Sequence record: PP627279.1
DNA length: 59,853 nucleotides
Reading direction: 5' to 3' (one strand)
Source of the DNA: Escherichia phage KS_A8
Below, piece after piece: positions 39,760 to 46,399 of the stretch (its first letter is position 1; each line of letters opens with the position of its first letter). A program made the translations under genes and the position numbers. The notes under the pieces were generated by a model that did no database searches, was not told where the DNA came from, and saw nothing but the letters and a program-made list of their open reading frames with translations.

Positions 39760-40487
39760 TAGTTGATACCTTTCATTTTGTTGATAACAGAACCTAAGTG
39801 TGGGACTTCAACCGCATCTAAACGTCCCGAACGATCCTTAGCGATTGTATTAAAGTCCGGTTGAGTTTGCAAGTAACGATATGAGTTACCTTGCTGATCC
39901 TTATTTACATTCAGACGAAACACTTCGTCGAAGAAGTAAGGGAGCATTTGCCCCAATTTGGACCCAGGCATAGATGGAGCATACGCGGTAACACCGGAGA
40001 CTTCATCTTTGTCTTTGCCCATTTTAGCAGACATATAAACATGTTTGCCAGGAATATCGCGAAATTTACGGATCAGATCTTGCATCTTTTCAAGCAAAGT
40101 ACCATAAGCTTGACGAGGATCTTTTGTTCCTTTTTTCGCATTGTTTAAACATTGTTCAGCAATTTCGCTCAAGCTGTCAAGCGCAATAGAATCGAAATAC
40201 TGCTGGTTAGCTGGAGTTACACACCACTGATAAGCAGCTTCAACGTCCTCCAGACATTTAACTTCAATAACTGGGATATCATAAACGATCGGCAATCCCA
40301 TATTACCATAAACGCGATTAAGGTTTTCCGCTGCAATAGATAACAGACCGGACTCTGCGCTGATCAAAATTGGTTTAGGTAGTGTGGCTACAAGGCTGGT
40401 TTTACCCATACCCGCTTCACCGTAAACCAGAATTTTAACGCCTGTGTCTTGCACTACTTGTGAAGACATTTTAATTTCAATGGCCAT
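39759..40487 (-). CDS. Sak4-like RecA-fold ATPase (recombination)
   Basis: 242 aa; Walker A VYGEAGMGKTSL near N-terminus; typical size and neighbourhood for phage Sak4-like proteins. Confidence 0.5.
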   Translation of the reverse strand: MAIEIKMSSQVVQDTGVKILVYGEAGMGKTSLVATLPKPILISAESGLLSIAAENLNRVYGNMGLPIVYDIPVIEVKCLEDVEAAYQWCVTPANQQYFDSIALDSLSEIAEQCLNNAKKGTKDPRQAYGTLLEKMQDLIRKFRDIPGKHVYMSAKMGKDKDEVSGVTAYAPSMPGSKLGQMLPYFFDEVFRLNVNKDQQGNSYRYLQTQPDFNTIAKDRSGRLDAVEVPHLGSVINKMKGIN

Positions 40488-44536: not shown

Positions 44537-45004
44537 TTATTGGATTGAACCGCGATTAATTAGCCATTGTTTCGCGTGCGCTTTAAAAATAATGCGGTAG
44601 TCATCAAGACTAATTTCCGCGCGGATGGAATCTTTAACTTCATACCACTGCCATTCACCATTACTGAAGACAACCGGATTAAGTGGTAGAACAACCTTCC
44701 ATCCTTTACGTTCTATTTTATACATCAGAACTGGATATCTGCCAAGCTCTTTAGCAGATTGAACAGTCTGCTTCCACCATGTGTTTACTTGTGGTGTAGC
44801 ATGGTTTTTTACTTCAACTGCATGGTGACATGTATTGCTAATGTCGCAACCACCGACCGCACTTTGATTCTGGTTACGCTGAGCAATAGGTTTTTCCGGT
44901 AACTGCATCCCCAGCTCTGCGTAGATTTCGGCATAAATTGCATTAAAGAAATCACATACTTCCCGCTCACCGCGTTGACCTTTAGCGCGAATATTTACTG
45001 CCAT
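44537..45004 (-). CDS. PD-(D/E)XK nuclease, Holliday-junction resolvase-like (putative)
   Basis: Start set at MAVNI (RBS GGAGA); GQRGEREV...GGCDIS...VEVKN fits an E...D...ExK nuclease core. Confidence 0.35.
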   Translation of the reverse strand: MAVNIRAKGQRGEREVCDFFNAIYAEIYAELGMQLPEKPIAQRNQNQSAVGGCDISNTCHHAVEVKNHATPQVNTWWKQTVQSAKELGRYPVLMYKIERKGWKVVLPLNPVVFSNGEWQWYEVKDSIRAEISLDDYRIIFKAHAKQWLINRGSIQ

Positions 45005-45076
45005 GTTTGTCTCCATAACTTTAATGTAAAACACTTCATAAAGAATTTTATATTGAAGTTATGTTGATCGCAAGGA

Positions 45077-45108
45077 ACAAAAAAGCCCAGGCATAAGGAT
45101 TCCTGGGC
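45077..45108 (-). terminator. intrinsic terminator inside the early block
   Basis: GCCCAGG-N10-CCTGGGC hairpin; on the minus strand followed by TTTTTTGTT. Confidence 0.5.
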
Positions 45109-45109
45109 T

Positions 45110-45421
45110 CTCTTGATTGTCGGATAGCTTACTTTGACTGCCGTCTTCGTCTACCCTGGCCTACTTGTACAGCCTCGCCAAAGGCTGGTGACGGTTTGGT
45201 ACATCTGGCGCCGTCTCGTTAAACATCGTTTACATCGTTCAGTAAGTTGCGGGTTTACCCTGTCCGCTCCAGGAAGCCCAGCGAAAGTAGTTGCTGTAAG
45301 GAGGTACAGCTACCGCTTTCAAGGGCTTGAGTTAAGCATCGTTCACTAAGTTAATGTTGTTAAATTGTTAAACCTCGTTAACTGTGGTTATCTTAAAGGA
45401 TGCAGTCTTGAATGGCAAGCT
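45110..45421 (-). other. about 310-nt non-coding, repeat-bearing region ending in a terminator (candidate ncRNA or protein-binding array)
   Basis: No convincing ORF on the gene strand; three CATCGTT copies (45224, 45233, 45337) and two CTCGTTAA copies (45215, 45374). Confidence 0.3.
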
Positions 45422-45739
45422 TCAATTTTGCGCGGTTCCCTTTGCCGCTTTTGGCGCTAAAGTACCATCATTTAACATCAACTCAAAACCTGTTACTTGA
45501 TCGGTTGGAACAATAGGGTAATTCATGATAGCCATGTGGATACGACACCCTCCGTCGCATTCATCGATGTATTCATTACCCCAATAGTATAAATGACCAT
45601 CTCTTCGAATATCCATTGCCGTCGGGAAATCTACAAGAATTCTTTTAATTTCTTTTCGTCCTTCTTTATGCAGATTAGTTTCAATACGGATAAGCTCCGC
45701 ATAAATTGCTTCACAGATAGTATTTACAATTCCCATCAT
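45422..45739 (-). CDS. hypothetical protein
   Basis: 105-aa ORF with Cys pair CDGGC. Confidence 0.3.
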   Translation of the reverse strand: MMGIVNTICEAIYAELIRIETNLHKEGRKEIKRILVDFPTAMDIRRDGHLYYWGNEYIDECDGGCRIHMAIMNYPIVPTDQVTGFELMLNDGTLAPKAAKGTAQN

Positions 45740-46174: not shown

Positions 46175-46399
46175 ATGGTCATGCTGAATAAAGTATATAG
46201 CACAATGGGCGCGGATTATAAAGTTGTACGTCACCCGCGTACTGGCAAATTTGAAGCATATCTCCGTCCAATGGGTGAAGGTTGGATGTATTACGGTACT
46301 TATGACGACGCTGAGCAAGCTTATAAAGAAGCGGAAAGTGCGGCGGAAGCATCCGAAATTATGGCAAGGTACGACGTCGATGATTACTATCTCAACTAA
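46175..46399 (+). CDS. hypothetical protein (plus-strand gene inside the minus-strand block)
   Basis: 74 aa, RBS GGAGGATTACAAA, followed directly by a hairpin terminator. Confidence 0.4.
   Translation: MVMLNKVYSTMGADYKVVRHPRTGKFEAYLRPMGEGWMYYGTYDDAEQAYKEAESAAEASEIMARYDVDDYYLN

Follow-up and report, generated by a model that had tools for sequence, protein, structure and literature searches.

A candidate structured RNA gene among the early and replication genes of Seuratvirus coliphages

Lytic coliphages have been annotated almost wholly as protein genes, and the records of Seuratvirus genomes inspected here either leave one stretch blank or fill it with small open reading frames (ORFs) on the wrong strand. 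What does this stretch specify? The DNA analyzed (the window) is the 59,853-nucleotide (nt) sequence of Escherichia phage KS_A8 (PP627279.1), a coliphage of the genus Seuratvirus (Queuovirinae). The stretch, at positions 45077-45421, lies in a long minus-strand block of early and replication genes and shares its strand with that block. A preliminary description made from the letters alone had proposed a non-coding repeat region ending in an intrinsic terminator, either an RNA derived from the 3′ untranslated region (UTR) of the upstream gene or an array of protein-binding sites. Comparison with homologues indicates that the region is likely to be a functional RNA gene. The RNA family is rated as new, while its kind, a phage-encoded structured regulatory RNA, is already known. 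The features discussed below are summarized in Table 1.

A non-coding stretch with a strand-specific secondary structure

GenBank phages were searched for homologues in three modes (near, distant and protein), and the queries were the window, STP-SP5 and PSTCR7. The element was found in 34 Seuratvirus records, of which 33 are >95% identical to the window, and the Salmonella phage STP-SP5 is 80% identical. Beyond these, the GenBank phage searches yielded only two Providencia phages (PSTCR7 and PSTCR4; 4 records). The 900 bases around the element show 97-98% identity to the Escherichia phages Seurat, CAjan and Skure and to the BASEL phages GottfriedDienst, SeppeHuegi, WildeMaa, KurtStettler and VogelGryff. 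A pattern search of IMG/VR gave 3 near-identical contigs, the rest being noise, and the JGI metagenomes gave 7 near-identical contigs and 2 chance matches. The GTDB genomes contained one chance match only, in a Planctomycetes metagenome-assembled genome, and no match to the element was present in E. coli genomes and plasmids. Logan contigs, reached via divergent homologues of the upstream protein, carry an almost identical RNA and therefore gave no extra covariation. No Rfam 15 family was detected at gathering thresholds in the whole window or in the sequences L001, L002, L008, L009 and L010, and permissive E-values gave chance matches only (E > 5 for the window region and > 0.3 for the PSTCR7 region). 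No description of the RNA was found in the literature on Seuratvirus or Queuovirinae transcriptomes and non-coding RNA (ncRNA), or on phage small RNAs (sRNAs) directed against Shine-Dalgarno (SD) sequences.

Between the window and STP-SP5, the nucleotide identity of the RNA (80%) lies between the amino acid identities of the upstream protein (42%) and the downstream nuclease (95%), so that conservation is not exceptional at this distance. The real evidence is the pattern of substitution rather than plain conservation.

The stretch is non-coding. The gene strand contains no ORF of at least 30 amino acids; the only ORF on the minus strand within 45077-45421 is 27 amino acids long, in agreement with the preliminary description, which had seen no credible one. 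No ORF on either strand is conserved between the window and STP-SP5, and every candidate frame is shifted by the indels that separate the two (2, 1 and 3 nt). Two candidates were rejected in this way. The frame of a 71-amino-acid plus-strand ORF, annotated in several records, is lost in STP-SP5 with only nine residues in common before the divergence, and the frame of a 21-amino-acid minus-strand peptide starting from the third AACGAUG is lost as well. GenBank records list “hypothetical proteins” of 53-71 amino acids opposite the RNA (L004:1582-1797, L002:1582-1743, L200:482-697 and L202:482-643, all on the minus strand of those records), and some other records extend the nuclease gene upstream into the terminator. 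Since STP-SP5 does not retain the frame, the opposite-strand ORFs were probably called in error, and the extended nuclease annotation is probably spurious too.

The minus-strand RNA has a predicted folding energy of -107.9 kcal/mol, corresponding to z = -3.46 relative to shuffled sequences, as compared with z = -1.03 for the plus strand. The z values for STP-SP5 and for a class of homologues with a replaced 3′ part (see below) are -2.4 and -2.8, respectively. The G+C content is 50-54% in the structured part and 35-45% in the flanks. Covariation was examined with 21 distinct sequences taken from GenBank, IMG/VR, metagenomes and Logan contigs; the full-length ones numbered 17. In the RNAalifold consensus of the 17 full-length sequences, 8 pairs are double-changed, versus 0.8 in column shuffles (0/500 as many) and 0-2 with slid partners; H1 and H2 alone account for 7 double-changed pairs versus 0.9 in shuffles. 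From 5′ to 3′, the consensus consists of an AU-rich tract, the hairpins H1, H2, HY and HZ, a small hairpin and the terminator, together with three possible long-range helices.

The changes are concentrated in H1. In STP-SP5, 16 positions of its stem differ, and the result is 6 double-changed pairs, 3 one-sided changes that still pair and 1 broken pair, with two G·U pairs fixed. L006, L194 and L214 carry an independent C-G to U-A change in the basal part of H1. H2 has one compensatory C-G to U-A change in STP-SP5. HY is uninformative on pairing because it is invariant. The one-sided changes in HZ include A-U to G·U in KS_A3 and Greed. Over H1 and HZ together, 55 alignment cells are G·U and 3 are A·C; only the minus, gene-sense strand can therefore pair in this way. 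The secondary structure is strand-specific and is maintained by compensatory changes in H1, H2 and the small 3′ hairpin. The ncRNA proposed in the preliminary description is thus supported by the strand-specific fold, the compensatory changes, the gene-sense G·U pairs, the lack of a conserved ORF and the closing terminator. Poor conservation or coding capacity in relatives, which it had named as observations that would speak against an RNA, was not seen among the homologues.

Table 1 Features of the element and its surroundings. Positions refer to the window unless another sequence is named.
Feature	Position	Strand	Remarks
PrimPol-type primase-helicase gene, 780 amino acids	46426-48768	-	NrS-1 HBD domain and PDB primase matches; followed by a few small genes
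Upstream gene, 105 amino acids	45739-45422	-	directly before the non-coding stretch
Sigma70-like promoter	45390..45418	-	-35 TTGCCA 45418-45413, 17-nt spacer, -10 TAAGAT 45395-45390; overlaps the upstream stop codon
Predicted ncRNA, ~305 nt	~45385..45079	-	start estimated from the -10 hexamer; end within the T-run
5′ AU-rich tract, 31% G+C	45328..45385	-	six U(U/A/G)AAC motifs at 8-10-nt spacing; copies 1 and 2 of GTNAACGANGNTTAAC
13-mer UAACUUAGUGAAC	45341..45353	-	identical in PSTCR7 at the corresponding place
Hairpin H1	45275..45327	-	20 bp, small bulges, apical loop CCUCCU
ACCUCCUUA at the H1 tip	45297..45305	-	invariant in 21/21 distinct homologues including STP-SP5
Hairpin H2	45249..45267	-	GCGG / CCGC stem, 11-nt loop ACAGGGUAAAC; loop G/A-polymorphic at one position
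Start of unit B, AACUUACUGAACGAUGUAAACGAUGUUUAAC	45218..45248	-	includes 16-nt copy 3 (45233-45218); number of 9-nt units varies between phages
Hairpin HY	45215-45190	-	GACGG / CCGUC, 16-nt loop; invariant
Hairpin HZ	45187-45170	-	CAGCCUU / GAGGCUG; three one-sided changes, each yielding G·U on the minus strand
3′ domain	45109..45165	-	GGCCAGGGUAGAC at 45161-45149 repeats the H2 loop motif in unit B
Small hairpin GAC-GGCA-GUC	45145-45136	-	A-U pair inverted to U-A in PLYYY01
Long-range strand	45133-45123	-	predicted partner 45340-45330
Intrinsic terminator	45079..45108	-	GCCCAGG, 10-nt loop, CCUGGGC, U6; 7-bp G+C-rich stem
Promoter-like site of the next gene, TTGCGA-17-TAAAAT	45045..45073	-	outside the RNA
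PDDEXK_15 nuclease gene	45004-44537	-	after the non-coding stretch; followed by dUTPase
Unannotated ~350-nt stretch of PSTCR7 and PSTCR4	L008:7690-8045; L206:372-745		between the primase cluster and the nuclease gene
Extra small gene, copies	L001:1914-2216; L198:826-1128; L214:3285-3533		

Transcription signals, 3′ modules and tandem repeats

The limits of the structured stretch coincide exactly with a promoter-like site on one side and a terminator on the other. The sigma70-like promoter scores 9/12 against the consensus and is present in 21/21 distinct homologues; in STP-SP5 it reads TTGACA-17-TAATAT, which is nearer the consensus. The RNA start is predicted near 45385-45382, 5-8 nt past the -10 hexamer. 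The terminator was described correctly from the letters (GCCCAGG at 45108-45102, CCTGGGC at 45091-45085 and T6 at 45084-45079), as was the promoter-like site of the downstream gene. An automatic scan missed the terminator because its 10-nt loop exceeds the limit of 8 nt set in the scan. The terminator of STP-SP5 retains the stem and has a different loop. Both the promoter upstream of the region and the long hairpin with the invariant apical ACCUCCUUA are additions to the preliminary description.

No terminator was found between the upstream gene and the element, and read-through transcripts would consequently contain the element. To this extent the earlier suggestion of a 3′ UTR-derived RNA stands; because a conserved promoter-like site lies directly before the element, an independent transcript appears at least as likely. 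A stricter form of the suggestion is that the stretch is a long structured 3′ UTR acting in cis, whose hairpins, above all H1, would be signals for stability and for processing by RNase III or RNase E, with no function in trans. Apart from the co-transcription, this explanation would account for the block of high identity, which reaches 40-80 nt into the 3′ end of the upstream gene, and the length and interrupted-duplex shape of H1 are reminiscent of phage RNase III sites, such as the intergenic ones of phage T7. However, ~60 nt suffices for a stability element, and the present one has 305 nt, with tandem units, repeated single-stranded motifs and loops of 9-16 nt that are invariant; the upstream gene is the least conserved of the neighbourhood (42-63% amino acid identity) beside an element of ~99% identity. 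Furthermore, the PSTCR7 element follows a gene on the opposite strand and hence cannot be a 3′ UTR. We consider a purely cis-acting 3′ UTR improbable.

The 3′ part of the element proved to be exchangeable. Homology stops at 45166 in VogelGryff, SA80RD, OddieOddie, SA126VB, Dru_SM1 and contig L190, and in these six homologues the 3′ ~87 nt from 45165 is replaced by unrelated sequence with a different terminator at the same place. The 5′ ~220 nt is therefore the conserved core, and the long-range helices cannot be essential. The replacement class (L002:1767-1893, L003, L204 and L190) was also seen to have its own terminator and promoter and then a gene for an HNH homing endonuclease before the nuclease gene.

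This exchange bears on a leader or tandem-aptamer riboswitch, which would control read-through of the terminator into the genes for the nuclease, dUTPase and nucleotide metabolism. The arrangement, a pair of ~105-nt units ahead of a single terminator, resembles tandem aptamers, and alternative pairings are possible in that the 3′ base of H1 and the 3′ arm of the terminator both contain CUGGGCUU. Yet the alternative pairing is not retained in STP-SP5, and coupling of a riboswitch type to this terminator is unlikely since the terminator and 3′ domain are exchanged in six homologues. The downstream gene has its own promoter-like site, an extra gene or the homing-endonuclease gene may separate the element from the nuclease gene, and no Rfam riboswitch was matched. 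A riboswitch is accordingly given very little credence.

The repeats noted in the preliminary description were all found again: CATCGTT (AACGATG when read on the minus strand) has three plus-strand copies, at 45224-45230, 45233-45239 and 45337-45343, and CTCGTTAA has two, at 45215-45222 and 45374-45381. They belong to larger units. One of these is a 16-nt element, GTNAACGANGNTTAAC, of which three exact minus-strand copies (45382-45367, 45346-45331 and 45233-45218) are present and no further copy occurs elsewhere in the 59.8-kb window. In the ~305-nt stretch, AACGAKG was observed 4 times versus 0.05 expected and U[AUG]AAC 10 times versus 1.1 expected (0/2000 shuffles for each). Three repeat families recur at a spacing of 104-105 nt, which defines two diverged tandem units of ~105 nt. 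The units, 45353-45249 and 45248-45145, align with 55/107 identical columns (z = 5.9; 0/2000 shuffles as good), and the same 105-nt period is retained in STP-SP5. The motif GGNCAGGRUARAC occurs once per unit versus 0.02 expected, and a near-copy of the 13-mer, AACUUACUGAAC, opens unit B at 45248. Smaller units have been gained and lost, with an 8-nt deletion in STP-SP5, where copy 3 of the 16-nt element is degenerate, and a 9-nt insertion in Dru_SM1 that adds one extra UGAACGAUG. A hairpin predicted in the 5′ tract is not retained in STP-SP5, which has the 8-nt deletion there, and the AU-rich 5′ tract is therefore probably single-stranded.

Two observations on these repeats concern other systems or other parts of the genome. 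A type III antitoxin of the ToxI kind was considered and rejected: the units are ~105 nt long and ~50% identical, as opposed to near-identical repeats of 34-45 nt, and the downstream PDDEXK_15 nuclease gene has its own promoter-like site and is separable from the RNA, which is not an arrangement of the ToxN/AbiQ type. Genome-wide, CATYGTTNA occurs 17 times versus 5.9 expected (0/100 shuffles). Of the copies outside the RNA region, which holds three, at least some lie in coding sequence, for example a tandem pair at 40139-40158, a look-alike of the repeats that was discarded for this position, and codon usage may be the cause.

The repeats raise the question of a role at the level of DNA, namely that of a replication origin, or of an operator-like series of sites for a phage protein. 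The PrimPol-helicase or a small AP2-like protein would be the candidates for binding the TTAAC/GTGAAC/CGTTNAC repeats, and the transcript would only activate or prime the origin. The three exact 16-bp copies are confined to the region and form clustered direct repeats, as in iteron origins, and the six U/T-D-AAC motifs in the first ~58 nt have a spacing of 8-10 bp, about one DNA helical turn, which also suits a DNA-binding protein. Whole units of 8-9 bp have been gained or lost in STP-SP5 and Dru_SM1, although the repeats are not invariant, as is evident from point mutations in AACGATG and the degenerate copy 3 of STP-SP5. In phage P4, the iterons of ori and crr lie within direct repeats of ~120 bp, an arrangement to which the two ~105-bp units may be likened by analogy. 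The site belongs to the replication module and follows closely on the gene for a primase-helicase with an NrS-1-type HBD domain, and GTGAAC recurs in the element and in PSTCR7. The related NrS-1 enzyme recognizes short template motifs including 5′-GTGA-3′ (PMC8718748).

In contrast, compensatory changes and strand-specific G·U pairs are unexpected for a double-stranded DNA site, and the element is bracketed by a promoter and an intrinsic terminator; the pairing data would also be compatible with a single-stranded DNA structure of the same strand. The structured part is G+C-rich and not an AT-rich unwinding element. The cumulative GC skew has no inflection near 45 kb, which is a weak test for a phage, and its turns, at ~24 and ~51 kb, are where the direction of transcription changes. 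Taken together, a DNA-level role is the leading alternative and is judged rather unlikely, and a mixed model, in which an origin is combined with a structured transcript, is possible.

The anti-Shine-Dalgarno loop and possible roles of the RNA

The stem of H1 below ACCUCCUUA covaries while the loop stays fixed. ACCUCCUUA occurs only twice in the window (0.32 expected) and has exactly the sequence present at the 3′ end of 16S rRNA, which is the anti-SD element. Other stretches that are invariant between the E. coli phages and STP-SP5 are the 16-nt HY loop, most of the 3′ domain and a CCUGGAG linker.

A similar element was found in the Providencia phages PSTCR7 and PSTCR4 (Craquatrovirus), whose primase and nuclease are each 52% identical to the proteins of the window. 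The candidate RNA of these phages has a fold z of -6.1, a promoter-like TTGCGT-17-TATATT and a terminator, and PSTCR7 and PSTCR4 differ by one compensatory U-A to C-G change and one G·U to A-U change. It contains the exact 13-mer UAACUUAGUGAAC and, 38 nt later (37 nt in the window), CUCCUU in the tip of a long hairpin. Its loops GGGUAAGAC and then GGUAGAC are collinear with GGGUAAAC and GGGUAGAC of the window RNA. On the basis of the identical 13-mer, the CUCCUU spacing, the collinear loop motifs and synteny, the PSTCR element is probably homologous to the Seuratvirus RNA. A covariance model of H1 and H2 (R1) found its best match at the syntenic PSTCR element in the right register, with 14.4/12.6 bits and E = 0.1-0.3.

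From these features we infer that the RNA is a riboregulator or decoy acting in trans. This reading is favoured because the most constrained bases lie in loops and single strands, because the core is portable between different 3′ modules, because the best-supported hairpin displays a perfect anti-SD sequence, and because both units open with a 16-nt single-stranded motif, giving two or three equivalent binding sites. We lean towards a function in trans with less assurance than towards an RNA gene as such. That the anti-SD loop is the working end is a tentative proposal, with the balance of judgement against it.

In such a mechanism, the sigma70-like, host-type promoter would drive the RNA, probably along with read-through of the upstream gene, and transcription would halt at the intrinsic terminator. 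The exposed C/U-rich anti-SD loop would then, most likely, pair with certain mRNAs of the phage or the host at their GGAGG-type ribosome-binding sites. Additionally or instead, the repeated single-stranded AACUUAsUGAACGAUG segments may have an RNA or a protein as their target, with which they pair or which they sequester. The 3′ third would be an exchangeable module supplying little beyond the terminator. A bolder version, which we regard as unlikely, is that Seuratvirus and probably Craquatrovirus make an abundant two-unit RNA of ~300 nt that mimics the 16S 3′ end and reprograms translation in lytic infection; it might be a decoy or competitor for SD sequences, or for a host factor or defence nuclease recognizing the 16S 3′ end. 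To our knowledge, a class of riboregulators mimicking the 16S 3′ end is undescribed in enterobacterial phages.

Several observations count against an RNA gene of this kind. The covariation comes mainly from one divergent sequence, STP-SP5, and a few population variants, and five helices are invariant and hence uninformative. The base of H1 is disrupted by several single mutations, each seen in individual phages; some AACGAUG copies carry point mutations; and the strongly conserved 3′ domain is absent in six homologues. The promoter is a consensus match only, in a stretch that has 4 such matches versus 1.7 expected. With regard to the Providencia phages, the PSTCR element was not found with an nhmmer profile, and unrelated loci score like it under model R1. 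Any strong ribosome-binding site (GGAGG) would pair with the H1 loop, and a scan of the phage genome for complementarity gave no convincing target and no extended specific duplex. The anti-SD loop could instead pair with an adjacent invariant GGAG (45270-45267) as an internal pseudoknot.

Among the matches of the target scan, the best one outside the element itself, at 41833-41804, was rejected for its position inside an RNase H-like coding sequence. The sole perfect 9-nt complement of the H1 loop in the phage genome is TAAGGAGGT (23853-23861), the ribosome-binding site of a plus-strand gene at 23867-24070; this gene encodes 67 amino acids starting with MCGNTNRCC and is the last small gene of the plus-strand late block.

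The loops were also considered as a sponge for CsrA that displays GGA motifs in the manner of CsrB and RsmZ. The repeats of CsrB are CAGGAUG, and most homologues have CAGGAUA in the H2 loop and unit B and CAGGAAU in the terminator loop. Both CAGGAUA motifs, however, read CAGGGUA in the window, the position being polymorphic among near-identical phages, while GGA is essential for CsrA. GGA is not enriched, with 3 occurrences in the window RNA versus 5.1 expected and 5-6 in the relatives. A CsrA sponge is therefore held to be highly improbable.

Comparison with known systems places the element near several of them. Like trans-acting sRNAs of bacteria and phages (for example DicF, StxS and AgvB/AsxR of prophages, or Hfq-dependent sRNAs in general), it has a promoter-like site, a U-tailed terminator, a conserved single-stranded 5′ segment as a possible seed, no coding capacity and a location in a phage early region. 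As an sRNA 3′ end, the terminator offers a Rho-independent stem and a U-tail; the U-tail and the AU-rich 5′ tract are indirect features of an Hfq-type sRNA. Unlike those sRNAs, the element is ~305 nt long with at least 6 helices, three times the usual size, belongs to a strictly lytic phage and has no sequence or Rfam relationship to them. The RNAs RNAIII, RsaE and SprX/SprD of S. aureus likewise carry a C/U-rich GGAGG complement in an apical loop that is invariant over a changing stem. They have several such loops where the present RNA has one, the host here is enterobacterial, the mRNA pairing is putative, and the resemblance is without homology. The 3′ UTR sRNAs DapZ and MicL resemble it in having a promoter located where the upstream coding sequence ends and a terminator that also serves the mRNA; the element is much longer and, in PSTCR7, not downstream of a co-directional gene.

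The iteron, R-loop and RNA-primed origins (P4 ori/crr, ColE1 RNA II, T4 oriF/oriG) are similar in their short repeats at helical spacing, the two ~105-bp units, a nearby primase-helicase gene and a promoter reading into the element. They differ in that here pairing with G·U is found on one strand, the terminator is strong and the skew has no inflection, and that initiator binding is only proposed. The T4 stable RNAs C and D, GOLLD and ROOL are, like the present element, conserved and highly structured phage ncRNAs without an assigned role. No sequence or structure similarity to them was seen (no Rfam match), the element lies outside a tRNA cluster, and it is much smaller than GOLLD and ROOL.

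An RNA supported by covariation would add a regulatory layer to the biology of the Queuovirinae, and it is directly testable, as E. coli K-12 supports the growth of five members (BASEL Bas21-25). Should the invariant anti-SD loop be the working end, a virulent phage would interfere with translation initiation via an RNA and not a protein. If the repeats mark an origin, they would locate the origin of a PrimPol-helicase replicon.

Neighbouring genes

The PrimPol-helicase gene lies ~1 kb upstream of the element. The 105-amino-acid protein encoded directly before the element is the least conserved of the neighbourhood, with 42-98% amino acid identity where the RNA is 80-100% identical; in L212, L213 and slur01, for instance, it is 54-63% identical beside an RNA of ~99% identity. 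A dedicated RNA-protein partnership is unlikely because a hypervariable protein stands beside an invariant RNA. The near-identity block at the 3′ end of this gene includes a hairpin, GCGGCAAAGGGAACCGC (45432-45448), that resembles H2 of the RNA.

The nuclease encoded at 44537-45004 (minus strand) is labelled “RusA-like Holliday junction resolvase” in many records. It matched Pfam PF24608 (PDDEXK_15, phage putative PDDEXK endonuclease) with E = 1.5e-13, and no RusA family was matched in a Pfam scan at E <= 0.01; the label is therefore probably wrong. In STP-SP5, Greed and some others, an extra small gene of 82-100 amino acids, which is absent from the window, lies between the RNA terminator and the nuclease gene.

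In JenP1 (Nonagvirus), a non-coding stretch of ~180 nt (L010:9650-9830) that ends in a terminator was observed upstream of the homologous nuclease gene, with z = -3.4. It has no recognizable similarity to the Seuratvirus RNA and may be an analogous element. No tRNA or tmRNA was detected in the window with ARAGORN.

Just after the primase gene, a plus-strand gene of 74 amino acids (46175-46399) has a weak AP2 DNA-binding match (E = 0.004, under the Pfam cut-off), and judging from this match its product could be a regulator or an origin-binding protein. PSTCR7 and JenP1 have a small opposite-strand gene at the same position.

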